Positions 9,294 to 48,565 of a DNA stretch of 54,345 nucleotides are shown here, in pieces. The notes under the pieces are model-generated. The model saw only the letters and a program-made list of their open reading frames with translations, ran no database searches and was not told the origin of the DNA. How positions within the stretch are numbered: position 1 is the first letter of the stretch; each line of letters starts with the position of its first letter. This stretch comes from a virus. Lineage: Duplodnaviria > Caudoviricetes. A program made the position numbers and the translations under genes. The stretch is taken from the IMG/VR virus record IMGVR_UViG_3300020401_001611, positions 1 to 54,345 of that record; one strand, 5' to 3'.

Positions 9294-9301
9294 TATTTAT
9301 C
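9294..9301 (-). promoter_or_regulatory. Late promoter-like GATAAATA
   Basis: 7 nt before the ATG at 9286; no SD. Confidence 0.55.
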
Positions 9302-10880
9302 AATAGTTGGTACTTATGAAGATAGGCATCGGCGCTTCATAATCTTCAATATCTTCTGTTTGATTAAAGGTATTATATATTCTAGGATCCCAATCTTTCA
9401 ATACAGACATCATTCTTATAGCTAATAATGTAGCACTAATAAGGTCGTCTGTCTGTCCTAACTTTGCATTATAACTTGAACCAGTAGCTACATAATTTTT
9501 TAATTCGGATATCATTGGTTTAGAATGAATGCACATTTTATCATTTTCTATCATTGTTTTTAATCTACTACAAGCTGTGATCTTTGTGCTATGTGTTGTA
9601 TTGAAGCCTTTACGGAATTTACGTACATGTCCTTTTCTAATAGGTTCACTTACAAATAATCCTTTTATGTTATCTTCGCCAAAATCATTAATTACAATAA
9701 GTGCAGCCTCACCTATACCGTTGTTTTCAACACTCCAATAAATTCCATTTTCGTTACCAATTTCGTTTGCAATGTAATTACAGATATCAGCTAATACTCT
9801 AATTTGTCCTGGTATAGCAGTTGTATTATGTTGCCATTCAGCAACTTGTTCATAGCTAGGTAATTCAAACACTTGTATAGCGGCATAGTCACCTCCTGTT
9901 CCCATGCTTGGGTCTAAGGCAACAGCATATGTATAATCTTTATTAGGCGCTTTGTACCAACGTGTTTGACCCATATTTATTGTTGGATTGTTTCCTTCTA
10001 ATGTTGCAAGTTTTATTGCACTAATTAATGTTTCGTCGAATACCAAAAACTCGCAACCATATTCTCGTCTAAATCTTTCCTCTCCAATTCGCCCCATTTC
10101 TTCGTCTTTCCATTTTTCATCTCTATCAGGATGCTCGTCCCAACTACATGTAAAACTATGGAATCCGTTACGTCCTACTGCCTGTTCGTTTCCGTGTTCG
10201 TCAAATTTATCTTCTGCTTGTTTCCAAATATTTGCGAATGTATCTTCATCTGAGTTAGGCGTACTTGTAAGAATTGCACGACCACCTGTAGCAAGTGTCG
10301 GAGATATTGATGTCCAAAATTCATCTGCAATAGTAGGTTGCACAAATGCAAACTCGTCACAATACAATAAAGAAATACTCATACCACGCCCTGTATTGCC
10401 TGTTGTAGTGGCACTTACAATACGAGAACCATTTTCAAATTCTATACTACCTTTGTTGTAATTTACAACACCTGCTCTTATATGATCTGGACACATTTCA
10501 TACCCATATCTAATGCGTTGCATTATTTCTTGGGCGCCTGTGTATTTGTGTGCCGCTATAAGTATCGTTTGATCAGGATTAAACATTGCATACCATAATA
10601 GGTATATTGCGGCACATGTTGTTTTGCCTGTCTGTCTAGGCAACATATTGATATTAAATCTATGATTGTGGTAACTACCTAATAAACGTACTTGATATTC
10701 GTATGGGTCAAAAAGAAGTTTACCTTGTACTGGGTGTTGTATATATGCAAAGTGTTTTGCAAAATACAAATATCCTAAATCCCTATCCATGCATTTTGCC
10801 AAATCTTGGATTTGTTCTTCTGTAAACGTTTCTTTTTTATTTGCTTTTTTGGTTAAAACACCATCTAAACTTTTGCTCAT
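9300..10880 (-). CDS. terL: Terminase large subunit (T4 gp17-like)
   Basis: YQ motif, Walker A PRQTGKTT, Walker B LLYCDEFAF, TSTPN, nuclease motifs ALDPSMG and DDL. Confidence 0.95.
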   Translation of the reverse strand: MSKSLDGVLTKKANKKETFTEEQIQDLAKCMDRDLGYLYFAKHFAYIQHPVQGKLLFDPYEYQVRLLGSYHNHRFNINMLPRQTGKTTCAAIYLLWYAMFNPDQTILIAAHKYTGAQEIMQRIRYGYEMCPDHIRAGVVNYNKGSIEFENGSRIVSATTTGNTGRGMSISLLYCDEFAFVQPTIADEFWTSISPTLATGGRAILTSTPNSDEDTFANIWKQAEDKFDEHGNEQAVGRNGFHSFTCSWDEHPDRDEKWKDEEMGRIGEERFRREYGCEFLVFDETLISAIKLATLEGNNPTINMGQTRWYKAPNKDYTYAVALDPSMGTGGDYAAIQVFELPSYEQVAEWQHNTTAIPGQIRVLADICNYIANEIGNENGIYWSVENNGIGEAALIVINDFGEDNIKGLFVSEPIRKGHVRKFRKGFNTTHSTKITACSRLKTMIENDKMCIHSKPMISELKNYVATGSSYNAKLGQTDDLISATLLAIRMMSVLKDWDPRIYNTFNQTEDIEDYEAPMPIFISTNY

Positions 10881-10885
10881 GTATA

Positions 10886-10893
10886 TATTTAAC
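10886..10893 (-). promoter_or_regulatory. Late promoter-like GTTAAATA
   Basis: 5 nt before the terminase ATG; no SD. Confidence 0.5.
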
Positions 10894-10917
10894 CAAAAAA
10901 TAAGGGATTATTTTAAT

Positions 10918-11439
10918 TTACGAGTATTCAACACCTGCGTAAAAAGGTATATTTCTGCTACTAATTAGGCTAGATCCCGGCAAGAATGTCAAGTTCATAA
11001 TACAAGCACAAGCAATTATATTGCCTCCTAGTTCTTGTACAATATCTATTGCGGCATTCATAGTACCACCTGTAGCCATTAAATCATCTATGATGATTAC
11101 TCTGTCATCTTTTGATATTGCATCTGATTTGATTTCTAAGGTTGCTGTGTTATATTCTAGTTGATATTCTTTTGATTTTGTAGGCGGAGGTAGTTTTCCT
11201 TTTTTTCTCGCTAGTACTAACGGATTACGTGTTCTGTGTGCAAAAATACTAGCAAAAATAAATCCTCTAGCATCTAAACCAACAATCTTATCTACAGGAC
11301 AATATTTTAATAGCTTGTCATAAAGAAAATTATTTGCTTCTGCAAACCCCTGGGGACTTTGACATAAACTTGCTGTGCATTTAAAGTCTATGCCCTCTTT
11401 AGGAAAATCTTTATAACTTGTTATATACTCTTTTATCAT
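10918..11439 (-). CDS. apt: Adenine phosphoribosyltransferase
   Basis: DFPKEGIDFK, GLDARGF, RKKGKLP, YQLEY and PRPP-binding IIDDLMATGGT. Start placed at ATG 11439 (TAATG overlap with the upstream stop). Confidence 0.92.
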   Translation of the reverse strand: MIKEYITSYKDFPKEGIDFKCTASLCQSPQGFAEANNFLYDKLLKYCPVDKIVGLDARGFIFASIFAHRTRNPLVLARKKGKLPPPTKSKEYQLEYNTATLEIKSDAISKDDRVIIIDDLMATGGTMNAAIDIVQELGGNIIACACIMNLTFLPGSSLISSRNIPFYAGVEYS

Positions 11440-12299
11440 TAGTAACTCTGTGCAAGTCTCCACATCAGATATTCCTTGCTTTCAATTGGTTCATACTTAT
11501 CAGGTTCTTTAGTCAAATTCTTAACTATAGTACCAGGTTGCGGGTCAACAAAGTGTGGCATACTGAAACGCTCTTGATCAATGTGTGTATTTACTACTCT
11601 ATGCTTTGTACTTTTAAAATAATCATTTGTCCAACGTTGTAATAAGTCACCTATGTTTACAACGACACCGTCGTCAGCGTATGGAACAGAATGCCATGTG
11701 CCTTCAAGGTCCTGTACTTCAAGTCCTGGTACGTCATTGATTTGCCAAAGTAATGTAATAGTACCATAATCACTGTGTTCTCCGATCCTCATTTGTTTGT
11801 CTAACAATGGACCTGTGTATGCAGGATAGTGTAATATTCTTGTTGTGTTGAACATATGTTTATGTGCATCTACAAGAGTTGTACCTGTGTTCAATATTAC
11901 ATCAAACATACTTAAAATACGTAATGTTAGTTTGTCTGCAATACTAATACTATCTAATGCACTTTGTTTGAACGTTGGTAATTCTGTAGGCCATAATTCA
12001 TCAGGCATTCTAGTATTATTGTAATTGTATGATTCTTTAATATCTTTTGGTGCTGTAGGATCTACATTTTCATGTCCTACCATACTGTATCCTAAGTTTG
12101 TTTCGTTATTATAGGGATATTTTTGTTTTGTTTCCATAGGCAAAGCAAAAAAGTCTTGCATACTTTGTTGCCACATTTTCATTTTAGTTGCTTCTGGAAT
12201 ATCAAGTGCATTTGTAAAAACTGCAAATCCTACAGTAGTATATGCTTCTTCAATTTTTTTTAGGCTATTTACGCCCATTAAATCTATAATTGGTATCAT
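11439..12299 (-). CDS. Isopenicillin N synthase-like 2OG-Fe(II) dioxygenase (PcbC family)
   Basis: IPIIDL, GFAV, FFALP..K, HYP, HSDYGTITLL, NIGDLLQRWTN, STKHRV and RFSMPHF motifs. Confidence 0.9.
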   Translation of the reverse strand: MIPIIDLMGVNSLKKIEEAYTTVGFAVFTNALDIPEATKMKMWQQSMQDFFALPMETKQKYPYNNETNLGYSMVGHENVDPTAPKDIKESYNYNNTRMPDELWPTELPTFKQSALDSISIADKLTLRILSMFDVILNTGTTLVDAHKHMFNTTRILHYPAYTGPLLDKQMRIGEHSDYGTITLLWQINDVPGLEVQDLEGTWHSVPYADDGVVVNIGDLLQRWTNDYFKSTKHRVVNTHIDQERFSMPHFVDPQPGTIVKNLTKEPDKYEPIESKEYLMWRLAQSY

Positions 12300-12317
12300 T
12301 ATTCTATTCCTGAGTTG

Positions 12318-12343
12318 ACAAGTGGCCCTTGCGAGCCACTTGT
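12318..12343 (-). terminator. Stem-loop after the BMP gene
   Basis: Minus strand ACAAGTGGCTC-GCAA-GGGCCACTTGT; weak U-tract, so it may be a stabiliser or partial terminator. Confidence 0.55.
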
Positions 12344-12350
12344 ATATAAG

Positions 12351-13445
12351 TTAGTTAGGTAATAGTGCGTCAATACCTTCAACATAGTAATTCATGCTGT
12401 CTAGATGTGCTCTATCAGCAATTTCACCATCTTTTAGTCTAAGTTCACCTTTGTTGTCTTTGATTGGACCTGTAAATGCAAAGTATTCACCTGCTGTAAT
12501 AGCGGCTTTAATTTCTTCAGCTTTTGCTTTTACATCATCTGGCATGTTAGTGAACGGTGCCATACCAACTGAACCATCATTCATATGTCCAAAGTAACAA
12601 CCTTCAACAGGGTCACATTCTGGCTTCCATGTGCCGTCTAGTACTTGCCCAACTTTTCTTACATAGTAAGGCCCCCAGTTATCAATAGTTGCTGTCAATT
12701 GTGCCTTAGGAGCAAATCTGTATTGATCACTTGCTTGACCAAACCCAATAAGTCCTTGTTGTTCTGCAACCTGTAAAGGAGCAGGTGAGTCTGTGTGTTG
12801 TGCAATAACATCACAACCTTGGCTAAACAACGCTTTAGCGGCATCTGCTTCTTTACCTGGATCGTACCATGTCATAACCCATACAACATCAATGTCAACT
12901 TTAGGATTCATTTTCTTTGCACCCATATAAAATGTGTTAATTTCCCTAATTACTTCAGGAATTGGATAGGCTGCAACATAACAAATTTTATTAGTCTTAG
13001 TCATCATACCTGCAATAATACCTTGTACATGTCTTGCTTGGTATAATCTTAAACCATAGTTAGCAAAGTTTGTGTCATTACTTTTGTAACCTGTAGCATG
13101 TTCGAATTTGATATTTGGAAACTCTTCTGCTACTTTACGCATTGAATCCATATATCCAAAACTTGTTGCAAAAATAATGTCAGCACCTTGCATTGCCATT
13201 TGACGCATTACACGTTCTGCATCTGGACCATACTTCACACTTTCAACAAAGAATGTTTCAACTTTGTCACCGTATGCTTCTTCAACTTGTTGACGACCAA
13301 TGTCGTGTCTGTAAGTCCAACCGTGGTCACCTGTTGGTCCTACGTATATAAAGCCAACTTTGACTTTGTCTTTTGCCTCACCAGCGAATGCTGGAGACAT
13401 AATTGCGATAACTGTCGCAAAAAGGGCAGTTAAAAATAGTTTCAT
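12351..13445 (-). CDS. BMP-family ABC transporter substrate-binding protein (purine/nucleoside type)
   Basis: Signal peptide ending AFA; KVGFIYVGP.GDHGWTYRHD, IFATSFGYMD, FEHATGYK, IPEVIREIN, WYDPGKE and QHTDSPAP; GAGGAG SD. Confidence 0.92.
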   Translation of the reverse strand: MKLFLTALFATVIAIMSPAFAGEAKDKVKVGFIYVGPTGDHGWTYRHDIGRQQVEEAYGDKVETFFVESVKYGPDAERVMRQMAMQGADIIFATSFGYMDSMRKVAEEFPNIKFEHATGYKSNDTNFANYGLRLYQARHVQGIIAGMMTKTNKICYVAAYPIPEVIREINTFYMGAKKMNPKVDIDVVWVMTWYDPGKEADAAKALFSQGCDVIAQHTDSPAPLQVAEQQGLIGFGQASDQYRFAPKAQLTATIDNWGPYYVRKVGQVLDGTWKPECDPVEGCYFGHMNDGSVGMAPFTNMPDDVKAKAEEIKAAITAGEYFAFTGPIKDNKGELRLKDGEIADRAHLDSMNYYVEGIDALLPN

Positions 13446-13548
13446 GTTTTATCTCCTCTTAGGTTGTGGGTGTTCTCTAACTACAAAATGCTTCACCCAA
13501 ATGGTACAAAATAGATTGATGTCAAGTTAGATTGACACTTGACAATGG

Positions 13549-13556
13549 TATTTATT
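13549..13556 (-). promoter_or_regulatory. Late promoter-like AATAAATA upstream of the BMP operon leader
   Basis: TAAATA core about 100 nt before the BMP ATG. Confidence 0.45.
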
Positions 13557-13899
13557 ACAGGTACTCATTATAGTACCCGATATCGAACCTTAGATCAAAT
13601 AGCATGCGTTTGTCTTGCTGAATAATGACTGGAACAGGTGCACCGTTTGGACCATTGTTAGGATCGCTCCACAATATTTCAAATTCACCTGTGTCTAGTT
13701 TTTTATGAAGTTTTTTTAAGCGTCTTCTATTATAATTTTTACAAATATAAACTATAGCTTGATTTTTTCCTAATGGCTCAAGTTCACCGGACCAATCAAC
13801 AAATTTTATTTCGCCTTTTTTTAGAGCGGCTCCACTCCATGGACATACAGGTTTAATGTGTTCAAAATATTTCTTCCAATCAACTTCCGTAGATGACAT
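13555..13899 (-). CDS. Hypothetical protein
   Basis: 114-aa ORF in operon context with a VCPWS motif. Confidence 0.7.
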   Translation of the reverse strand: MSSTEVDWKKYFEHIKPVCPWSGAALKKGEIKFVDWSGELEPLGKNQAIVYICKNYNRRRLKKLHKKLDTGEFEILWSDPNNGPNGAPVPVIIQQDKRMLFDLRFDIGYYNEYL

Positions 13900-14542
13900 C
13901 CTTAATCCATTTTGCTTCTTTGGTTACACCGTATATATCTAAATGCTCCCCTTTATCAAAACAATGTGATTTGTAATCAGTAATATTTTCTTGTGTAGTT
14001 GGCATATCTATAAACTTAAATTGTTTATTATGTCCAAAAATAAAATCAGCTTTTGATTTCAAATATTCTCCTATGCAGATAGATTGCGTATGTTCAAAAT
14101 CAGGATGTATATGCTCCGTCCATAATTGCCAAAATTTATATGATTTTTTTATATCCCAAAAGTTGCTCTGATGATGCGGGAAAAATCCATTTGGACTCAT
14201 AATATAAATTCTTCTCATATTCTCCATACTCCATGCATGGTAGTTAGGAGATCTTTCTTCTAATTTCATTATAAAAGATTTATGAATAGATGAATATCTA
14301 CAACCTGCTGTAAGTTTTACAATATTATAATCATAGAGATGTGAGAACTTATTAAAGAAAAACATTATAGCTTGGTTGCTTAATCCGCCTCTTCCGTAAT
14401 TATGTATAGTATCGTTTGGGAGTATTTTGCTAAGTTCTTCAGGCCAACTAACGTATGCAGTCTCTTTTTTGCGTTTTTTGCCGCGGTTTTTTATACCGCC
14501 CATTCCCGCAGTCCAACTACAACCATATGTGGCAATCTTCAT
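13880..14542 (-). CDS. Hypothetical protein, SGNH/GDSL-hydrolase-like
   Basis: GCSWT block I-like motif, NYGRGGLSN block II-like motif, C-terminal DKGEH. Confidence 0.55.
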   Translation of the reverse strand: MKIATYGCSWTAGMGGIKNRGKKRKKETAYVSWPEELSKILPNDTIHNYGRGGLSNQAIMFFFNKFSHLYDYNIVKLTAGCRYSSIHKSFIMKLEERSPNYHAWSMENMRRIYIMSPNGFFPHHQSNFWDIKKSYKFWQLWTEHIHPDFEHTQSICIGEYLKSKADFIFGHNKQFKFIDMPTTQENITDYKSHCFDKGEHLDIYGVTKEAKWIKDVIYGS

Positions 14543-14551
14543 TTGCCGATT

Positions 14552-16951
14552 TTAACCTCTAGATTTTTTCTTGCCGCGTGAAGCCTCTTCCATACCACGG
14601 TTTTTCTTCTTGCCGCGTGATGCTTCTTCCATTCCACGATTTTTCTTTTTGCCACGTGATGCTTCTTCCATGCCACGGTTTTTCTTCTTACCTCGTGATG
14701 CTTCTTCCATACCACGGTTTTTCTTCTTACCTCGTGATCCTTCTTCCATACCACGGTTTTTCTTTTTGCCACGTGATCCTTCTTCCATACCACGGTTTTT
14801 CTTTTTGCCACGTGATCCTTCTTCCATGCCTCTATTCTTTTTTCCGCGGTTCTTTTTGCTTTCATCAAACTTTTCGTTTAATGCGGCCCACAGTTGTTCT
14901 CTTATACTAGATTCTACTGTTTGATGAACTGCTGGATCTTTTGCACGTATAGCACCTTTAGGTTTTTCTCTGTTTATTCCTCCGGATAAATCTTTTGTCA
15001 TAGTATGATGATCAGCATATGTTTCTTCTGGTGAATTATCCCATTCTTCATCTACTGCTTCTTCTCCCATTCCACACGGTGAATCTCCCATAGGTGGTTC
15101 TGGCATATCAGGTTCTGCATGCATATGAGGAATATTTGATTCCATACCAGCATTTTTCAATATAGCAATTAGTTCTGCAACTTCTGCTGAACTAGAACCA
15201 TTCATTGAAATATTCATTGATGCTTCTTTCACTTGTTTTTTCATGTTGGTCTCCTTTTCTGCAACTTGTACACCGCGTTCCTTAGCATCTGCATTCGCAT
15301 CTGGAGCACCGCTTTGCTGTGTATTAGCTTTAGGTGCACCTATTATTTTTGCACCTTTATTATTTTTTATGAATATATCTAAAGCCTGTGGCTGTCCGTA
15401 CCCTCTAATGACAGTTCCGTCTGTTTGTGGGATTTCAACGAAAGGCTTAGGATATTTTTTCTTCATATCTTTTACATTGAAGTTTGTTGATTGTCCAGTT
15501 GATTGAATATGGACTTCTTTACTTACCTTAGGTGCTGTTGGAGCATTTCCTAAGTCATCTCCGTCTCTTGTGTCTGTATTTATATCTGGACCTTTTCCGC
15601 CGAATGCATCTAACCCCGGCTCTTTAGCTGTAGCTTGAGGATCATTTGCATATGTTGCGTCACCTTGCTTTTGTGCATCATCTGCTGCCGCTTGATTCTG
15701 TGCCGCTATATCATCTGCTGGGCCATCTACACCCTGTTGTGGAATGTTAAGGGCTTTTTCCATACGCTTGATTAAGTCGCCGAATTCTTGTTGTACTTTA
15801 GGATCTCTTTTTGCAGATGCACGTATTTGGTCTAAATATTTTTGTAGTTGTGCTAACTGTGGAGGATCTAATTTTTCTGCTATTGCACGGTTTTCAACTA
15901 TAAATCTATAGTGAGTCATGCCTTGAACACTTTCTGCCGCCATTTTTAACAACTTTTCAATTTCAGGAGCAATAACTTGTCTAATTCTTAATCTACTAGG
16001 AACTTGTTCTGTACCTTGATCTGTTGCTTGTGGATCATCTGCGAAATTTGCATTTCCTGCATCCATTGCTTTATCTGCGGCTGCTTGATTAGTTGCATCT
16101 TGTTTTGCTGTAGCATCTGCATCTTTTGGTTTTTGTCCTTGTAATAATTCTTGAATCTTTTTCATAGTATTTGGACCAGCTTGTCCATCTACAGTTAATC
16201 CGTTAGCTTTTTGAAAAGCGGCAACTGCATTATAAGTTCCTTGGCCGTATTTGCCATCTATACCATTTGGATCGTGACCTAATCTACCTAAAGCTGTTTG
16301 CAAATCTTTAACAGCAGGCATTGCTTGTTTGCCACCATCATTATATGCTTTCATTAAGTTAGCTGTCTTCAAATCTAATTTTCCAGCAAGGTTAGATCCA
16401 GCATCACCTTTGCTTGTATCTATTTCTGGACCCGCTCCACCAAAGGCATCTAGACCTGGATCTGCATCAGTAGCTTGATCTGCTTGGTCCATTCCTTGTG
16501 CAACACCACCTTCTTGATCAGTAGCAGTACCTGGATCTTCTTCACTACCTACAGCATCAACTGACCCATCGTTTTGAGGTGCTCCGCCTTCACCGCCTCC
16601 TTGTGCATTTGCTCCCGTTGCTTGATCTGCTTGGTCGATTCCTTGTGCAACACCACCTTCTTGGTCAGTAGGCTTAAATTTTCCTGTTCCAGCAATAGCG
16701 TCTTTTTGATCTTTAGTAAGTGCTTTTTGTTCTGCACCACTTGTTGCCTCGTCTGCGGCTTTAATTTCTGCAGGACTCATATCGCCACGTAATTCACCAG
16801 CTATTTGATCTGCTCTAGCATCATCAATACCTAAAACTTTTTGTACAGTGCTTGTTACCCAATCAACAAATCCTTCATCTAATTCTTTAGTATCTTTTCC
16901 AAAAGCATCTGCAATTTTGATATGTTTTTTGATGTCTGTCATATTATCCAC
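14552..16951 (-). CDS. Low-complexity virion/internal protein with peptidoglycan-binding domain and C-terminal basic repeats
   Basis: PG_binding_1-like VKDLQTALGRLGHDPNGIDGKYGQGTYNAVAAFQKANGLTVDGQAGPNT; internal duplications; 13-aa repeat tail. Confidence 0.8.
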   Translation of the reverse strand: MDNMTDIKKHIKIADAFGKDTKELDEGFVDWVTSTVQKVLGIDDARADQIAGELRGDMSPAEIKAADEATSGAEQKALTKDQKDAIAGTGKFKPTDQEGGVAQGIDQADQATGANAQGGGEGGAPQNDGSVDAVGSEEDPGTATDQEGGVAQGMDQADQATDADPGLDAFGGAGPEIDTSKGDAGSNLAGKLDLKTANLMKAYNDGGKQAMPAVKDLQTALGRLGHDPNGIDGKYGQGTYNAVAAFQKANGLTVDGQAGPNTMKKIQELLQGQKPKDADATAKQDATNQAAADKAMDAGNANFADDPQATDQGTEQVPSRLRIRQVIAPEIEKLLKMAAESVQGMTHYRFIVENRAIAEKLDPPQLAQLQKYLDQIRASAKRDPKVQQEFGDLIKRMEKALNIPQQGVDGPADDIAAQNQAAADDAQKQGDATYANDPQATAKEPGLDAFGGKGPDINTDTRDGDDLGNAPTAPKVSKEVHIQSTGQSTNFNVKDMKKKYPKPFVEIPQTDGTVIRGYGQPQALDIFIKNNKGAKIIGAPKANTQQSGAPDANADAKERGVQVAEKETNMKKQVKEASMNISMNGSSSAEVAELIAILKNAGMESNIPHMHAEPDMPEPPMGDSPCGMGEEAVDEEWDNSPEETYADHHTMTKDLSGGINREKPKGAIRAKDPAVHQTVESSIREQLWAALNEKFDESKKNRGKKNRGMEEGSRGKKKNRGMEEGSRGKKKNRGMEEGSRGKKKNRGMEEASRGKKKNRGMEEASRGKKKNRGMEEASRGKKKNRGMEEASRGKKKSRG
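14555..14860 (-). repeat. 39-bp tandem repeat (about 7.5 units) encoding [A/G]SRGKKKNRGMEE
   Basis: Seven MEE-containing units plus a partial one; units differ mostly at synonymous positions. Confidence 0.95.
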
Positions 16952-36759: not shown

Positions 36760-38355
36760 TTAACTTCCTATTGATATATTCGAAGGACCAGTAAGTGTCC
36801 ACGGATTTTCTTGGCTGTATTTTGTGTATAAAAACTGTGTTGATTGTCCTAGTAGACTATTTTCAGTATCGTCATAATCTGTATCTGATCCTGTTGTGTC
36901 CATAACACCTTTACTATCTGCTAATATCCTTTGTTTTAGTTGTTCAGGAGAAAGGTCAGGAAATACTTGTAAGTAAAGACAACATATTCCTGCTACTTGA
37001 GGAGATGCCATTGATGTGCCACTAATACTCATTTGCTTAAAATTACTATCTCCAAAATATTCAATAGGAGAAAATTTTGCACTGTTATAATCGTTACTTG
37101 TTGCACTCATTATATCACTGCCTGGTGCCCAAATATTACATCCTGGACCTCTACTTGAAAACACACTAGGTTTATCGTTATCTGATCCGTTGACTGCACT
37201 ATCTACACTTGCTACCATAAATGCTCTAGTACTATAAGGAGAGCTTCCTTGATGATAACTAACGTTTCCGCTAAAGTTCACTGTGTTTGCGTAATCACTT
37301 CCGGAACCAGTGTCTATTTTATTATAATTATTACCTGCGGCAATGCATACATGTATTCCTGCATCAATCATATCTTCTATTTCAGCATCAACACTTGCTA
37401 CCCGAATACTTAATCGAGCCGCAACTGGTACACCACCTGATGTTATCCTCATAATAGGCACACCTGTAGCTTGCTCTAAACTTGCTCTATCACTATAATC
37501 CACACCGTATGTCCAAGCAGTTCCTCTATAAACACCATCTGTAGGATCACCAGTTCTAGTTGTGCCGTATCCCCAACTCATGTTTACCACAGTCGGCCTA
37601 TTAGCATCTGCACCTGCTTTGTTGTTGTGCCATATTCTTATAGTATCAAAAGCATTAGCTATACTGATTCCGTTGTTTGGATCACCTGTGCCTTCTAATC
37701 CTGCTAGTTTTTGACTATATACTCTTGCATTTTTTGCCCATCCAAAAGTTTTGCCTACTGCTGTACCTGCACAGTGAGTACCGTGGCCGTCATAATCTGT
37801 GTAAAAGTTATCGTCTTGTGTTTCGCCTGTAATACCACTACCAGATAACCAATCTATCTGTTGCACTCTACTTACACCATTTGCATCTTGAAACTCTGGA
37901 TGATCAGGTTGTATACCGCTATCCTGTACTACAAAATCTATTCCCGTGCCGTCTAGGGGGTATGTATAATCACCAGTAAGTATTGTATCACTTCCAAACG
38001 GATCGTTATGTACTTCTATACATCTACGCAATGCCCAATTACCGTGTGTGTTATTTGTGCTTGATCCTCTATACCAAATTCCAGTCTGCCTAGCATTAAG
38101 CCCAATTTCTATATCTGTTCTTTGATCTGCAGGTATTTCAACTGCAAGAACACGTTCATCTTTTGAAAGTTCTTCTGCTTCTTCATCAGTGAGCATCCAA
38201 TGAGTCATACGTTTTGATCCCCATCTTGGGTTAGCAACTTCTACTGATCTATTAGGAATTGGTCCTGTGCCTGTTTCAGCGGCAAGTTCGGCGTCAAATG
38301 ATTCTAAATCTATGCCTCTATGTACAACAACCACATATTCTTTTTCATTAGCCAT
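36760..38355 (-). CDS. Subtilisin-like serine protease (S8) with N-terminal propeptide
   Basis: Catalytic triad VQDSG, HGTHCAG and GTSMASP; VNMSWG and AAGN motifs. Confidence 0.92.
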   Translation of the reverse strand: MANEKEYVVVVHRGIDLESFDAELAAETGTGPIPNRSVEVANPRWGSKRMTHWMLTDEEAEELSKDERVLAVEIPADQRTDIEIGLNARQTGIWYRGSSTNNTHGNWALRRCIEVHNDPFGSDTILTGDYTYPLDGTGIDFVVQDSGIQPDHPEFQDANGVSRVQQIDWLSGSGITGETQDDNFYTDYDGHGTHCAGTAVGKTFGWAKNARVYSQKLAGLEGTGDPNNGISIANAFDTIRIWHNNKAGADANRPTVVNMSWGYGTTRTGDPTDGVYRGTAWTYGVDYSDRASLEQATGVPIMRITSGGVPVAARLSIRVASVDAEIEDMIDAGIHVCIAAGNNYNKIDTGSGSDYANTVNFSGNVSYHQGSSPYSTRAFMVASVDSAVNGSDNDKPSVFSSRGPGCNIWAPGSDIMSATSNDYNSAKFSPIEYFGDSNFKQMSISGTSMASPQVAGICCLYLQVFPDLSPEQLKQRILADSKGVMDTTGSDTDYDDTENSLLGQSTQFLYTKYSQENPWTLTGPSNISIGS

Positions 38356-43167: not shown

Positions 43168-43673
43168 CCTCCTGCTGGTTGTTCTCGCACATCAAAGAAG
43201 AAAACTTGTGTAAGTCTGCCGCTTTCTGGTGTATTTCCAAATCCAGATAGCAAACTTCTGTGTAATAAATCACCTCTATACAATACAAGTCTGTTGTAAA
43301 CATTTCCTATTGCATCAACAAGTTCAAATTCTCCTTGTTTATCTTCCTTGAATATTCCAGTGCCTGCTTCAATAGGAGCATTTGGTGTAAGGTATAATAT
43401 TCCTGCCCACATAGACGGATCTTTATGTACCCACGTTTCAGCACCTTCGTAACATAATTGATAGCAAAAACTATCCATTAAGAATTGTGTTATTTTTACA
43501 CCCATGATATCTTCAAATCTTGTTTTGCAATACATTTGAAAATCATCATCTGTTGCATGGGATCTCTTGCCTGGAAATTCTCCACTAGTAGGAAAATCAA
43601 GTTTTATAACTTGTTCTCTAACAAGATCTGGTTTTGGTAAAAAATTATCTACTATAAAAAGACTTGTACTCAT
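43155..43673 (-). CDS. 2OG-Fe(II) oxygenase-like protein (DUF6445-type)
   Basis: IVDNF..PD.VR, FPGKRS, HKD, AGILYLTP, NRLVLY...HRS and RLTQVFF motifs. Confidence 0.78.
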   Translation of the reverse strand: MSTSLFIVDNFLPKPDLVREQVIKLDFPTSGEFPGKRSHATDDDFQMYCKTRFEDIMGVKITQFLMDSFCYQLCYEGAETWVHKDPSMWAGILYLTPNAPIEAGTGIFKEDKQGEFELVDAIGNVYNRLVLYRGDLLHRSLLSGFGNTPESGRLTQVFFFDVREQPAGGWGE

Positions 43674-44473
43674 TTTAAATATTCCTCTATAGTTTGAAAC
43701 CTAAATTTTAACACAGTATTAAGTTTTTCTAAATTTGCACAAGTATAACTTTGATACTGATGTTTTAAGTTTTCAGGCATAGGTATATATTTTATTTTTG
43801 CATTATATTTTTTTGCAATTAAATCTGCTACTTGTTTAAAACTTACAGCTTTACCTGTACCAATATTATATATGCCTTTTTCTTTTATGTCAAACATTTT
43901 TTCATGTATTTTGCATATATCAGACACACATATAAAATCTCTTTTATAGTTTTCACTGTCTGTAAAAATTGTAATTTCGCCTTCTTCTTGTGCTTGTTTA
44001 GTAAACTTTGTTATAGGACTTGCTTGATTGCCTTTGTGTTCTTCATGAGGCCCGTATACATTAAAGTAACGGAATCCTTGAAATATAATTTTTGGGTGTA
44101 TACCTGTCACCCATCTATCAAATAAATATTTGCTCCAAGCATAAGGACTTTTAGGATCACTAGGTCCATCTTCTTTGAAATGTGTTGTGTTACCATACAC
44201 ACTTGCACTTGATGCATATTGCATGTTTACATTATATTGATTACATTGATTAAACAACCATTTTGAAAATTCATAATTGTGTAATATTACTTTATCTACG
44301 TCTGTTTCAGTAGTTGAACTTATTGCACCTAGATGTATTACCCAATCATAATCCTTTACAAGAGGTAAATTTTCTGGATGGAAGTCATAGCCAGCTACTT
44401 CGTGTTTTGTTTCTAAGTAGGACATAATATTTTGTCCTATAAACCCTTTATGACCTGTTATCAATATTCTCAT
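43670..44473 (-). CDS. hldD: ADP-L-glycero-D-manno-heptose 6-epimerase
   Basis: ITGHKGFIG, HLGAISSTTE, YASSASVYG, YAWSK, RYFNVYGP.E.HKG.QAS and RDFI motifs. Confidence 0.9.
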   Translation of the reverse strand: MRILITGHKGFIGQNIMSYLETKHEVAGYDFHPENLPLVKDYDWVIHLGAISSTTETDVDKVILHNYEFSKWLFNQCNQYNVNMQYASSASVYGNTTHFKEDGPSDPKSPYAWSKYLFDRWVTGIHPKIIFQGFRYFNVYGPHEEHKGNQASPITKFTKQAQEEGEITIFTDSENYKRDFICVSDICKIHEKMFDIKEKGIYNIGTGKAVSFKQVADLIAKKYNAKIKYIPMPENLKHQYQSYTCANLEKLNTVLKFRFQTIEEYLK

Positions 44474-45599
44474 CTATTATCCTTGTAGTGCTATGCCCTT
44501 CAACTGTAGGAAAAATTACTACTTCTGCTAATTCGTTACCTACTACAGTTTTGACTGTATAATCTCCACCTTTGACAATAATATCTGGTTCTAATTTGGT
44601 AATAGCTTCCAAAGGTGTATCTTCTTCAAACACAATCACATCATCAACAAAACCTAGTTCTAATAGGCTTTCCTTGCGGGTGTCTTCTCCGTTAATGGGT
44701 CTTAAATTGCCTTTTAAGCGTTTGACACTACTATCGCTGTTAATACCCACTATAAGTCTATTTCCAAGCGTTTTTGCGTGTCTAAGAAGCTTCAAATGGC
44801 CAATATGTAATATATCAAACACACCATTAGTAAACACTACAGTATGTTCTACATCTTCACGTTTTAAGATATACGTACCTGCATGTTTTACACTTTCAGT
44901 TGATCCTTTTACAGCAACCTCTAAGCATTTTTTATGTGTATAACCTTTTGTTAATCCATAAACAAATCCAGCGATAAAACAGTCACCTGCTCCAGTAACA
45001 TCAGATACTTCAACAGTTTCTACAGGTACTGTATATTCTTTATCTTCAATTGTAGCATTCACACTGTGTCCTGCATCGGTTGTAATAATGTTACCTTTCC
45101 ATTCATTAAAATTAAATTTATAAAATTCACTATTGTTAGGTTTCACTAACCAAGCACCTTCGTAATCATCTGCAAAACGTTTTGGGTCAACAATTATTTT
45201 ACAATCAAATTTATTAATATGTTTTATAATTTTTTTAGAATTATCTAAAGTGCCTTTGTTGTAATCACTTAAAACAACAATATTATAAGCAGAAAAGTCT
45301 GCCTGTTTTATTCTTTGTAATACAGCGTCACCGTCTGCATTTTTATCTTCGTCAATGCGTGTTATATAATGTCCGTCACAAATAATTCTAGTTTTTATAC
45401 TATGGTCTTCTAGTGTGTCATACATTTCTACATCTACACCTAGGCTTTTCAAATTATCATATACTAATGCCGCACCTCCCATAGTAGTTTTTTCTTGTGT
45501 AAACGTAACAACTGGTACAGGTGCTTCCGGACTAATTCTTTTGCTAGTACCGTAAATATACTTGTCTTTTATAATATCACCTATTACAAGAACTTTCAT
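44448..45599 (-). CDS. hldE: Bifunctional heptose-7-phosphate kinase / heptose-1-phosphate adenylyltransferase
   Basis: RISPEAPVPV, SDYNKG, VDPK and DVTGAGD (kinase); FTNGVFDILHIGH, NSDSSVKRLKG, KGGDY and STT (transferase). Confidence 0.93.
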   Translation of the reverse strand: MKVLVIGDIIKDKYIYGTSKRISPEAPVPVVTFTQEKTTMGGAALVYDNLKSLGVDVEMYDTLEDHSIKTRIICDGHYITRIDEDKNADGDAVLQRIKQADFSAYNIVVLSDYNKGTLDNSKKIIKHINKFDCKIIVDPKRFADDYEGAWLVKPNNSEFYKFNFNEWKGNIITTDAGHSVNATIEDKEYTVPVETVEVSDVTGAGDCFIAGFVYGLTKGYTHKKCLEVAVKGSTESVKHAGTYILKREDVEHTVVFTNGVFDILHIGHLKLLRHAKTLGNRLIVGINSDSSVKRLKGNLRPINGEDTRKESLLELGFVDDVIVFEEDTPLEAITKLEPDIIVKGGDYTVKTVVGNELAEVVIFPTVEGHSTTRIIDENIDNRS

Positions 45600-46123
45600 G
45601 AAAAATTATAATCCATATAAATATTTCCTGATACTGTAGATCCTTCATTGCCTGGCATAACAAAATGTTCAATCATACTAGGAAAAATTACAATATCTCC
45701 TTTTTTACATTCTGGCCTAAAATCTAAAGGAAATCTTGGATGGCCTCCGGATCCTATTTGATTTTGAATCAGTCTATAATTAGGATTCATAAAGACAGTT
45801 TTACCCTGTGGCACACTTTCATAAATTATAAAACTCCATTGACAGTTTGGATGAATGTGAATATCTTGCCAATCTTTTTGAGTGTAAGTGTTCCTCCATA
45901 TTTCTCCGAATCTTGGATTTTGGCCTATCAAATCTTGTGGCATTAGATCCAAAATTATAGATTGTAAATATTCAAAAGTTTCGGGTTCAATATCATGTTC
46001 TTTGCCAAAACTAGATTCAACTTCACTTAACCAAATTTTTTCAGTAGCCTTGTGGGTTATTTTTATTTTATCTAAATCTACCTTGCCAATAAAAAAAGGT
46101 ATTGCCCACATGTCATAATGCAT
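45596..46123 (-). CDS. 2OG-Fe(II) oxygenase (TIGR02466-like)
   Basis: WRNTY..DWQDIHIHP, SFIIY, IFPSMIEHFV and TVSGNI motifs. Confidence 0.8.
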   Translation of the reverse strand: MHYDMWAIPFFIGKVDLDKIKITHKATEKIWLSEVESSFGKEHDIEPETFEYLQSIILDLMPQDLIGQNPRFGEIWRNTYTQKDWQDIHIHPNCQWSFIIYESVPQGKTVFMNPNYRLIQNQIGSGGHPRFPLDFRPECKKGDIVIFPSMIEHFVMPGNEGSTVSGNIYMDYNFS

Positions 46124-46770
46124 TAAGTTCTCCAGGGTTGATTATTCTTAGGAGGTAGTGGTTGAGCTCTCATTGTTTTGTATACAAGTGTTGCACGTAG
46201 TCCCTTATAAGAATCGTTTGGTGGTAATCCATGATGTGGAATTTTACCTTTGAATAAGAAAATGCGTCCAGGCTTTGGATAAACTTTCTTCCATTCACCA
46301 TCTAATTTAATAATAGTTTCTCCACCCCATTCTTCTTTCCATTCTCTATTTACATAATAGATCCAACTAATACCATTATCACATTGACAGTCTGTATGTT
46401 CAACAGTGTTATGAATCCATTGTTGACCGTTAACTAGTATTTCTCCTATTTCTAATTCAAAAGGAATCATCTGTGCTACTGCATTGTATATCATGTTCCA
46501 GCTAGAGTCGTGTGCATTTGGACTGTTTGGTGGATAAATTTGTTGTTTAAACGCAGGAACTTCCGGCCAATCTGGAATAGCACCTACATCAGTTCTTGGA
46601 TCTTCAGGATAGTTACTAGTATGTCCGTAAAACCAACTGTATGTGTTAAAAACTTGATCGTGTACATGTTCTATTACATATTGTGGAAATAAGTCATCTA
46701 TTACTATCATTTGATCTTCGGCTAGATCAAATTCTGATAAATCTTTTGCTTCTTTACCATTAATTAACAT
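46123..46770 (-). CDS. 2OG-Fe(II) oxygenase (prolyl-hydroxylase-like)
   Basis: HTD, YYVN.EW..EWGGET, PKPGR..F...PHHG and RATLVYK motifs. Confidence 0.85.
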   Translation of the reverse strand: MLINGKEAKDLSEFDLAEDQMIVIDDLFPQYVIEHVHDQVFNTYSWFYGHTSNYPEDPRTDVGAIPDWPEVPAFKQQIYPPNSPNAHDSSWNMIYNAVAQMIPFELEIGEILVNGQQWIHNTVEHTDCQCDNGISWIYYVNREWKEEWGGETIIKLDGEWKKVYPKPGRIFLFKGKIPHHGLPPNDSYKGLRATLVYKTMRAQPLPPKNNQPWRT

Positions 46771-48565
46771 TTTCTACCTTTGCTAAAATATTGTGTTCTG
46801 CTATATACAAATATTCAATATCACTATTAGCAAGAGTTCTAAATGCATCATCTAAAGTTTCTACAAGCGGTTCTCCGCCTAAATTAAATGATGTATTGAA
46901 TATAATCGGAACACCTGTTTGTTTATAGAATTCATTTATGTAATCGTAGTATAATGGATTCTGTTCTCTTGTTACTGTTTGAATGCGACATGTACCATCT
47001 ACGTGTATTATACTTGGTATTTTTTCTTCTACACCAGGTTGACAGTTCATTGCATACATCATATGGGGTGAATCTTTCATTCCACGCATATCAAACCATT
47101 CTTCTGCATGTTCTGCTAGTATTGTACCAGCAAACGGACGGAAGTATTCTCTACGTTTTACTTTATTCACATGATCCTTGCCATTAGGGTCTGTTGGATC
47201 ATACATAAGACTCCTATTTCCTAAAGCTCTTGGTCCTGCTTCTGAACGTCCTTGGAACATTGCAATAATATTCTTGTTACACATTAATTTTACTACATCT
47301 TCTATTTCTACTTTTTCTAATGTAGCACCATATGTATCTGCTAAGTGTCCTATTTCTTTGTCGTCATAACTGTAACGTAAACCTAAATATAAACTTTCAC
47401 CAAATGGCATAACTTCTTTATTCTGTGATGTTTGATGATATGCAATGTATGCCGCACCAATTGCTGTTCCAGCATCACTTGATATTGGTTCAACATATAA
47501 ATTAATATCCATGTTTTTTAGTGTATCTAAGTAATAGTAGTTAGCAACACAATTAAGTCCATACCCTCCACTTAAAACAATATTTTTGTTACCTGTACGC
47601 TGTACAGCGTTTAAAATAAGTTCTAGAACTTGTTCTTGGCTTTCTGTCTGAACTGCATATGCTAGGTCTCTTCTGTTGTCTAAATCAACTAGTTCTTTTT
47701 GCGGGGTGTTATCTGGTGTTGTTAATTCATTAAAAAAGTTTTCATTTACTAACGCGGCATTAGGATATGTAGGTTTAATAAGATTTGCATTTGCCACTGT
47801 CCATTTACCGCCTGCATTTTGATATATAGGTGGAATTTTTTTGTTAGGTTTACCATAAGGAGAAAGTCCCATAGTCTTACCTGCTTCAATAGCTGTAAAT
47901 CCACAGTACTGTGTCACAGCTTCATATGCTTTTACAATGCCTGCTCCGTCATCAATAATAACATCATGTGTCCCTTCTTCATCAAACTTTTCGCTTGTCA
48001 TTTCCGACACATGTGCCGCTCTAAATGGTCCGTTGCCACCTAGGTGTTTCCAAATAGTTTTTATATTGTATGGATATTCGCATGTAAATATACTTTCTAA
48101 TTCGTATAGCATATTGTCCAGTCCATCCATTTGTGCAGGCATGAATGTACCAGCACCGTCAACAATTACTGCTGTAGCTGTTTCAAATCCACTTCTATAA
48201 AATGCACAAGCCGCATGTAACTTATGATGTATATGGCTAAGATCGACTACTTGAGGATGATTCAATACATCTATACTGGGGCTGTTATCAATTAATCCAA
48301 GTTTACGTGCAAGTCCTGTATAAACATCGTCACCAGTAAAGTCAACTTTACCTGCTGTTTCTTCAAGTGGCTGAGTGTGTGCAATAACTAAAAAGTCAAT
48401 TTTATCTGTATAATTTAAAATTTTTACCATACTTGCATATGGTCCGCCATCATATTTTTGCCTACTTAATCTTTCTTCTTCGATTGCAAATACAATTTTG
48501 CCGTCCTTAAGTAAGCAGACGCCTCCGTTATGACCTCTTGTTATTGCCGCAATCCATTGACTCAT
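46760..48565 (-). CDS. Carbamoyltransferase, NodU/CmcH family
   Basis: EEERLSRQK, HHKLHA, VDGAG, GKTMGLSPYG, SGGYGLNC, DAGTAIGA, GPRALGNRS, KRREYFRPFA and NTSFNL motifs. Confidence 0.95.
   Translation of the reverse strand: MSQWIAAITRGHNGGVCLLKDGKIVFAIEEERLSRQKYDGGPYASMVKILNYTDKIDFLVIAHTQPLEETAGKVDFTGDDVYTGLARKLGLIDNSPSIDVLNHPQVVDLSHIHHKLHAACAFYRSGFETATAVIVDGAGTFMPAQMDGLDNMLYELESIFTCEYPYNIKTIWKHLGGNGPFRAAHVSEMTSEKFDEEGTHDVIIDDGAGIVKAYEAVTQYCGFTAIEAGKTMGLSPYGKPNKKIPPIYQNAGGKWTVANANLIKPTYPNAALVNENFFNELTTPDNTPQKELVDLDNRRDLAYAVQTESQEQVLELILNAVQRTGNKNIVLSGGYGLNCVANYYYLDTLKNMDINLYVEPISSDAGTAIGAAYIAYHQTSQNKEVMPFGESLYLGLRYSYDDKEIGHLADTYGATLEKVEIEDVVKLMCNKNIIAMFQGRSEAGPRALGNRSLMYDPTDPNGKDHVNKVKRREYFRPFAGTILAEHAEEWFDMRGMKDSPHMMYAMNCQPGVEEKIPSIIHVDGTCRIQTVTREQNPLYYDYINEFYKQTGVPIIFNTSFNLGGEPLVETLDDAFRTLANSDIEYLYIAEHNILAKVENVN

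Follow-up and report, generated by a model that had tools for sequence, protein, structure and literature searches.

Cyanophages are known to encode PstS without pstCAB, a phage binding protein that relies on the membrane parts of the host. Here we analyze a locus with a comparable arrangement in a 54,345-nucleotide stretch of viral DNA (IMG/VR record IMGVR_UViG_3300020401_001611; the whole stretch is called the window below). The locus consists of three genes at positions 10918 to 13445, which encode a BMP/PnrA-like periplasmic substrate-binding protein (BMP), an Fe(II)/2-oxoglutarate (2OG) oxygenase and, from apt, an adenine phosphoribosyltransferase (APRT). As with cyanophage PstS, the phage has only the periplasmic component of an ATP-binding cassette (ABC) importer, which would boost the capture of a scarce nutrient for DNA synthesis. 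In contrast to PstS, the predicted ligand is a purine base and not phosphate, the binding protein has an obligatory oxygenase partner, often with a phosphoribosyltransferase (PRTase) after it, and the carrier is a phage of about 360 kb that would infect heterotrophic alphaproteobacteria. We suggest that the trio is a purine-base capture-and-salvage cassette of this marine jumbo phage, a reading that we consider rather probable in its entirety. The more general proposal, a function in purine uptake plus salvage, we hold to be likely.

The three genes are intact, co-oriented open reading frames (ORFs) on the minus strand, directly upstream of terL, the gene for the large terminase subunit (9300..10880, minus strand; PF03237 and PF17289). 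The BMP gene (12351..13445) is separated from the oxygenase gene (11439..12299) by 51 nt. The oxygenase stop codon shares one base with the apt start codon in the sequence TAATG (11437..11441, minus strand), an arrangement typical of translational coupling, and apt (10918..11439) lies 37 nt from terL, which is downstream. The G+C content is 0.364 in the trio and 0.362 in the window. An earlier reading of the sequence (the original prediction) had described three co-oriented host-like genes beside the terminase, with intact motifs and a signal peptide; this is confirmed by the ORFs, by Pfam and NCBIfam and by inspection by eye.

The closest described binding proteins are 3S99 of Brucella melitensis and AtzT of Pseudomonas, which are of the same fold family as the phage BMP. 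According to the part of PMC6834077 that was available, AtzT contacts its ligand through Tyr45, Ser97, Phe98, Glu165, Trp194, Asn218 and Asn220. It retains guanine with a dissociation constant of 110 nM, compared with 2.5 uM for adenine and at least 620 uM for pyrimidines, thymine being bound about 5000-fold more weakly than guanine, and the site of 3S99 was modelled with adenine. The phage BMP (364 aa) belongs to PF02608 (E 3.8e-51; 174.3 bits, cut-off 24.1), and its best PDB matches are 3s99 (E 5.9e-120) and AtzT 6pi5 (E 5.4e-96). We mapped the pocket positions by hand, using the alignment to 3s99 and AtzT and the residue list of PMC6834077. All seven (W43, S95, F96, E164, W193, H217 and D219) are identical to those of 3s99, while four are identical in AtzT and one more is conservative. 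They are kept in 95 to 97 of the 97 members of the phage BMP clade and in 66 of 66 typical operon-encoded relatives. That the BMP is of the purine-binding kind, as had been proposed, is thus borne out by the 3s99 and AtzT matches and the pocket, and we assign it to the purine-base-binding subgroup, with purine bases as the predicted ligand class.

The phage BMP differs from 3S99 and AtzT in its lack of adjacent ABC genes, and at position 168 and positions 134-137. Position 168, in the second shell, is Glu in all 97 members of the phage clade and Gly in all 66 typical relatives; residues 134-137 differ between these groups as well. In AtzT the second-shell positions belong to a hydrogen-bond network behind residue 218, as described in the available part of PMC6834077. 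These differences hint at a different ligand substituent, though they are no proof of one. The N-terminus of the BMP reads by eye as a Sec-type signal peptide of 21 residues (MKLF...SPAFA, encoded at 13383..13445, minus strand), with a lysine at position 2, a hydrophobic core, a putative cleavage site between AFA and GE after residue 21, and no lipobox Cys. Equivalent N-termini are found in phage and bacterial homologues.

A tblastn search of the window (E<=1e-3) with the ATPase and the two permeases of a BMP-type ABC transporter from SAR116 gave no match. PF00005 had no match above cut-off in the window record or in any of the four phage records related to it, which include one that is 91% complete, and a PF02653 search that covered these four records and the SAR116 genome had no match in the four. 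ABC ATPase or permease genes lie by the BMP gene in 0 of 93 viral loci, compared with 53-57 of 80 bacterial BMP loci, in which ATPase, permease and permease stand directly upstream. The original prediction had stated that the window has no permease or ATPase gene, and had likened the phage to those that carry only pstS and depend on a host transporter. Both statements agree with these searches, since a phage BMP without its own transporter is in a pstS-like situation. The SAR116 single-cell genome with locus L095 (see below) also has a second BMP, 49% identical to the phage BMP, in a complete ATPase-permease-permease-BMP operon. For SAR116 and phage alike, it is thus realistic to picture an orphan BMP that would share the importer already present in the cell. 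Taken together, the export signal, the purine pocket and the missing transporter suggest capture of purine bases in the periplasm and hand-over to a host importer.

A BMP unaccompanied by transporter genes could also have no part in uptake and serve in the periplasm as a decoy or blocker, to exclude superinfecting phages or to sequester a purine-derived signal, for instance, with the oxygenase gene and apt as unrelated morons. Phages do export proteins that alter the envelope. We regard this explanation as very improbable, because the ligand-contact residues are kept almost throughout the clade (see above), and the same orphan arrangement is found in SAR116 chromosomes beside the core genes rnpA, yidC and argB. 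A metabolic role is also favored by the cytoplasmic enzyme with which the BMP is constantly paired.

This partner enzyme (286 aa) is an oxygenase of the DIOX_N and 2OG-FeII_Oxy family (PF14226, E 4.9e-15; PF03171, E 2.2e-20). Its best PDB match by sequence is 5c3p, thymine-7-hydroxylase (T7H) of Neurospora crassa (E 7e-28, 31-33% identity), with other family members close behind (E 1e-24 to 1e-21). In a Foldseek search with an AlphaFold2 model (predicted local distance difference test score 96.4), ranks 1-10 were all T7H chains, with template modeling scores of 0.82-0.88. The enzyme had been described as like isopenicillin N synthase (IPNS). This is right at the level of the family, but the nearest characterized relative is a nucleobase oxygenase, T7H, and not IPNS.

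We mapped the functional residues of T7H, taken from the available part of PMC4787775, onto the alignment of the two proteins and found 12 of 14 to be kept. The iron triad H175, D177 and H233, together with R244 and S246, aligns to T7H H214, D216, H271, R286 and S288. R154 corresponds to T7H R190, so that both arginines, the serine and the tyrosine of the 2OG site are present (R244, S246, R154 and Y158). F292 and Y217, the aromatic pair between which the free base lies in T7H, are F250 and Y178 here, N68 corresponds to T7H N87, and the C-terminal lid residues Y277 and R281 are also kept. None of the 12 mapped active-site positions, among them H175, D177, H233, R244, S246, R154, Y158, Y178, F250 and N68, varies across the 82 sequences compared. 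This site fits an enzyme that would enclose a small planar base. The oxygenase thus shares with the T7H structures (PDB 5C3O-5C3S) the triad, the 2OG arginines, the sandwiching Phe and Tyr, Asn87 and the lid Tyr and Arg. It differs from T7H in that Glu122 and Asn294 are replaced (E122 by N92, N294 by D252), two positions of the water network around the uracil ring, and both replacements are fixed in all 82 sequences. It is therefore not a T7H orthologue. It is also bacterial and viral and not fungal, has purine genes as partners, and is accompanied by no decarboxylase in the phage records.

If the oxygenase were nevertheless a true pyrimidine enzyme of the T7H type, it would convert thymine to 5-hydroxymethyl-, 5-formyl- and 5-carboxyuracil, and its link to the purine genes would be one of position only. 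The purpose would then be the salvage of thymine to uracil, or the supply of a modified base. The first place of T7H in both the sequence and the fold comparison and the 12 shared functional residues speak for such an enzyme, and, in the part of PMC11698098 that was available, SAR116 genomes are described with both purine and pyrimidine usage genes. We think it unlikely, in its chemistry as in its purpose. The identity to T7H is only 31-33%, two of the functional residues are replaced throughout, and the gene is tied to a BMP with a purine pocket in 76 of 76 loci, whereas the related AtzT disfavors thymine about 5000-fold relative to guanine. PF04909 (Amidohydro_2) has no match in the window record or in three related phage records (G001, G002 and G004), these four including the one that is 91% complete, and has three unlinked matches in the SAR116 genome. 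Amidohydro_2 is, we assume, the family of iso-orotate decarboxylase, the pathway partner of T7H.

Few close relatives of the oxygenase are found in the databases. NCBIfam has no model for it, and PHROG offers only the unnamed family phrog_30382. Among 1.84 billion cluster representatives there is one full-length match at 72% identity, the next being at 44% or less, so that the orthologous group appears as a single isolated cluster; the nearest clusters bear the generic names "2OG-Fe(II) oxygenase" and "isopenicillin N synthase family". Some member of the oxygenase family is present in 104 of 401 sampled genomes of Alphaproteobacteria, and only two are above 60% identity, both of them adjacent to a BMP gene. 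In three of 28 other best loci, whose homologues are 29-33% identical, a BMP-type ABC operon is the divergently oriented neighbor, which is far more than would be expected by chance for a rare gene family. These three loci (L210, L211 and L212) are alphaproteobacterial, with oxygenase homologues 30-32% identical and complete importer operons, and they suggest an older and wider functional link between the oxygenase family and BMP transporters. Pfam searches on the neighbors of the three distant homologues were uninformative; the ORF calls in these high-GC loci are crude and probably partly wrong.

The pairing of BMP and oxygenase is without exception among the viral loci with room for it. The BMP query retrieved 244 stretches of IMG/VR viral contigs at about 70% identity or more, and the best 80 were kept. 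Of these, 76 extend 300 nt or more past the downstream end of the BMP gene, and all 76 contain the oxygenase gene, 72 of them within 300 nt. A gene for GTP cyclohydrolase I lies upstream of the pair in 21 of 93 viral loci (for example L003, L013, L017, L018, L020, L022 and L039). These loci belong to other jumbo-phage lineages, and in many of them the gene directly adjoins the pair, which might point to pterin or 7-deazapurine metabolism; the window has no such gene. PHROGs gave no match for the BMP or for apt, and a protein search with the BMP in 50,697 phage records retrieved only 12 unannotated "Bacteriophage sp." matches, at 39.5% identity or less, and none from a cultured phage.

The nearest cellular BMPs, at 70-74% identity, are those of SAR116 (Puniceispirillales) single-cell genomes and metagenome-assembled genomes (MAGs), in which the oxygenase is 62-73% identical. 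The oxygenase gene adjoins the BMP gene in 10 of 80 bacterial loci, nine of them SAR116-like and the tenth L094. The single-cell genome locus L095 is clearly part of a chromosome and lacks ABC genes; its order is cupin ... BMP, oxygenase, xanthine phosphoribosyltransferase (XPRT), rnpA, yidC, GTPase and amino-acid kinase (argB). The search of bacterial and phage genomes that the original prediction proposed has thus found SAR116 chromosomes with BMP and oxygenase and then XPRT. The SAR116 cluster and the phage trio share an orphan BMP and an oxygenase in the same order, without adjacent ABC genes. They differ in that SAR116 has a gpt-type XPRT where the phage has APRT, and in that the SAR116 cluster stands among core cellular genes.

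Locus L094, on a 61-kb contig of a MAG labelled Legionellales, has the full trio (BMP 72%, oxygenase 71% and apt 67% identical). Its flanking genes recur on IMG/VR jumbo-phage contigs, and its MAG has two terminase matches on other contigs; the contig also encodes cytochrome b and a 1073-aa subtilase. It is either a phage contig binned into the MAG or a cellular locus.

Trees were computed with FastTree, with Shimodaira-Hasegawa-like support only, and the paralogue from the operon served as root of the BMP tree. The orphan BMPs fall into a single clade (97 rows, support 100%), in which two SAR116 groups and an ABC-linked roseobacter group nest among the viral BMPs. In the oxygenase tree, the window copy and those of its terminase relatives L005-L007 fall in different major clades, which indicates that the module has been exchanged among phages. 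In the cellular genomes the G+C content of the module departs from its surroundings (0.345 compared with 0.297 in L095; 0.451 compared with 0.525 in L103 of Planktomarina), while the phage copies match their own genomes. This departure might hint at transfer from phage to host.

The third gene, apt, encodes a canonical APRT. The product passes the NCBIfam equivalog model NF002636 with 174.9 bits (cut-off 125), in line with the original assignment, and falls narrowly or clearly short of the cut-offs of NF002634, TIGR01090, NF002632 and NF002633 (for TIGR01090, 163.4 bits against 185.85). It also matches PF00156 (E 6.1e-16), and its best PDB matches are all APRTs (E 2.6e-35). The translation contains the loop VIIIDDLMATGGT, predicted to bind phosphoribosyl pyrophosphate (PRPP). 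An acidic pair followed by a small-residue loop is, as we take it, the PRPP-loop motif of type I PRTases. The ORF finder gave a longer frame (10918-11463, from a GTG at 11463), in which homologues align from residues 5-8. The start is probably the ATG at 11439, for a protein of 173 aa, because of the TAATG overlap, the 173-aa length of the L094 homologue and the point at which the relatives begin to align. Compared with bacterial apt, the gene passes the same equivalog model; it is distinguished by being phage-encoded and by the overlap of its start with the oxygenase stop. Relatives of this apt are found on contigs of 285-328 kb.

Other PRTases occur near the pair elsewhere. In the SAR116 single-cell genomes L095 and L101, a gpt-type XPRT follows BMP and oxygenase (in L095, 242 bits with a cut-off of 138). 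Of the 93 viral loci, 15 have a weak XPRT-like ORF (46.7 bits, below cut-off) in the flanking sequence that was fetched, and in the nearest relatives of the window, L005-L007, such a weak gene stands directly upstream of the BMP gene, in the slot of two ORFs of the window described below.

The XPRT that follows the pair in SAR116 allows a further explanation, that the pair serves purine breakdown. The oxygenase would then stand in for xanthine dehydrogenase, without the need for molybdenum, by hydroxylating hypoxanthine or xanthine, and the gain would be nitrogen, or the conversion of hypoxanthine to xanthine for XPRT. A precedent for molybdenum-free xanthine hydroxylation is fungal XanA, of another 2OG subfamily, and such a reaction lies within the capability of the superfamily. 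Purine catabolism is also widespread in SAR116 and SAR11, according to the part of PMC11698098 that was available. However, family searches with the genes that flank the pair in L094 and L095 found no uricase, allantoinase or other downstream catabolic gene, the neighbors are the salvage enzymes APRT and XPRT, and a phage would gain little from degrading purines while it replicates a genome of 360 kb. We consider both this role and the proposed gain improbable.

The residence of the trio in a phage genome is well documented. The window is the entire record and encodes a T4-type terminase, UvsX, a gp32-like single-stranded DNA-binding protein (SSB) and virion proteins (Pfam, PHROG). The closest cultured relatives of terL are PA5oct-like Pseudomonas jumbo phages (54% amino-acid identity), and a DNA-level search of the phage collection gave matches to jumbo phages in the terminase only. 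The completeness estimate of the record, 15%, corresponds to a genome of about 360 kb; related records measure 117 kb (33% complete), 172 kb (48%), 134 kb (37%) and 316 kb (91%). The order apt-terL-orf750-SSB-UvsX is common to eight distinct IMG/VR contigs (L005-L007 and L081-L085) with 80-97% terminase identity, and oxygenase and BMP stand upstream of apt wherever the contig extends that far. All or part of the stretch occurs in 20 sequencing runs from 10 listed studies, and 17 runs, which come from several of these studies, contain at least half of the sampled words. One contig from an unrelated run spans 10723-12785 with 0 mismatches and crosses the terL-apt, apt-oxygenase and oxygenase-BMP junctions; further contigs from unrelated runs cross the junction between BMP and the next ORF upstream, orf114, without mismatch. 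The identical oxygenase protein is found on 39 contigs, the longest of 199 kb.

These data bear on whether an error of assembly or binning attached a piece of cellular DNA, the trio, to phage DNA. The genes are host-like, with nearest cellular homologues at 70-74% identity, and one homologous locus, L094, lies in a bacterial MAG. However, the terL junction is common to eight independent viral contigs, every junction is bridged free of mismatches by single contigs of unrelated runs, the G+C content of the trio is that of the phage, and the phage copies have diverged in step with their terminases. We give such a join almost no credence, and a chimera with host DNA was rejected, as independent assemblies have no breakpoints at the junctions. 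The original prediction, in which the genes are phage-borne and an assembly chimera was the explanation to be feared, therefore holds on this point.

For transcription, two exact-match contigs from one metatranscriptome run, at 13293-13501 and 13772-13937, are a hint of expression, and the run covers 9 of 30 bins of the stretch; the bins without coverage carry no weight either way. At 12832-12886, the most conserved stretch of the BMP gene, the same run has contigs of 40-60 nt with 3-4 mismatches and up to 810x depth, which make up most of the depth of the run and are probably transcripts of related BMP genes in the community.

We propose the following mechanism. The phage BMP would be exported to the periplasm of an infected alphaproteobacterial host, of which SAR116 or a roseobacter is the likeliest. 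There it would bind a purine base and deliver it to a BMP-type ABC permease and ATPase of the host, which the phage does not encode. In the cytoplasm, the T7H-like oxygenase would act on the imported free base, a step that we place just short of probable. For this step our best guess is the oxidative removal of a methyl or alkyl group from a modified purine, or its hydroxylation; that it is specifically a demethylation or unmasking we put forward only tentatively. APRT would then use PRPP to convert adenine to AMP, feeding the replication of a large genome with 64% A+T. The constant BMP pairing, seen again in distant relatives, speaks for an oxygenase that acts on the cargo of the BMP, and the base-sandwich pocket, like that of T7H, is also in favor of a modified purine as substrate. 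A broad unmasking of modified purines would fit this pairing and an invariant pocket beside differing PRTases. Trapping adenine as AMP would be useful because several genomes of 360 kb and 64% A+T have to be built from a host genome of about 2 Mb. What we infer here is the docking on the host transporter, when the genes are expressed, which ligand is bound and, most of all, on which substrate the oxygenase acts.

Several observations weigh against this proposal. That the BMP would be compatible with a permease of the host is an assumption. The adenine of 3s99 is an unpublished modelled ligand. The nearest characterized relative of the oxygenase, T7H, acts on a pyrimidine, thymine, and not on a purine. 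Roseobacter members of the phage BMP clade stand in ABC operons and have no oxygenase. Scans of the locus for promoters and terminators gave scores at or below the shuffled background and nothing above it, and the RNA contigs are few and from a single library, so that contaminating DNA could account for them. The trio is also no obligatory unit. Where the contig continues for 2.5 kb or more, apt comes within 2 kb after the pair in only 9 of 39 loci; BMP and oxygenase are the conserved core, and apt is a variable add-on. Finally, the active site of the oxygenase is invariant whether the neighbor is APRT, XPRT or neither, which argues that its product is the specific substrate of neither PRTase. 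The purine operon of the original prediction is therefore upheld in part. Uptake and salvage are well supported; the invariant site and the frequency of apt speak against a strict three-step pathway, in which the oxygenase would make a salvageable base for apt.

Other features of the window are described here for completeness. Directly upstream of the BMP gene are two overlapping ORFs without assigned function, of 114 aa (orf114) and 220 aa (13555..14542, minus strand), which have no Pfam or PHROG match and no homologue in any fetched locus. A tandem repeat with 6.8 copies of a 39-nt unit (14564-14827; 92% matches) is located in the 3'-terminal part of the gene for a 799-aa protein with a peptidoglycan-binding domain and encodes 13-residue units such as GKKKNRGMEE(G/A)SR. 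A joint that goes back 36-37 nt on contigs of two runs suggests variation in copy number. A subtilase gene is located at 36760-38355. The region 43670-48565 is a sugar-modification-like cluster with an NAD epimerase, a PfkB kinase/cytidylyltransferase fusion, a carbamoyltransferase and, at 45596-46123 and 46123-46770, two further 2OG-Fe(II) oxygenases, which are small and belong to subfamilies other than that of the trio enzyme. A search of the 54 kb for tRNA and tmRNA genes returned none.

In the literature that we found, the closest papers being available in part, there is no description of a purine-binding BMP, of its oxygenase partner or of the trio in phages, in agreement with the original remark, in which the set was not known as a described module. 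The single literature match for a phage apt is a mislabelled Pta. Auxiliary genes for a binding protein only, and genes of nucleotide metabolism, are already known in phages, and it is the module of purine BMP and oxygenase that is apparently undescribed. As a speculation, and a doubtful one, the pair could be a two-part route that mines modified purines from seawater or degraded nucleic acid, spread by jumbo phages and exchanged with their hosts. Along this route, with the same doubt attached, an orphan BMP would deliver a modified (for example, methylated) purine base to a shared ABC importer, a purine-directed cousin of T7H would strip the modification, and APRT in the phage or XPRT in SAR116 would complete the salvage.

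Purines are a traded currency among ocean microbes, according to the available part of PMC11698098. From the locus it would seem that abundant heterotrophs have large phages that draw on this purine pool, by supplementing the transporter of the host with a high-affinity binding protein of their own, much like cyanophages with phosphate. With 244 matches among viral contigs, the module is common, and the A+T-rich genomes of its carriers, at 350 kb, must be a heavy load for a host whose own genome measures about 2 Mb. The closest relative of the oxygenase edits a free nucleobase, and the chemistry of the oxygenase itself could reveal a new reaction of nucleobase salvage.

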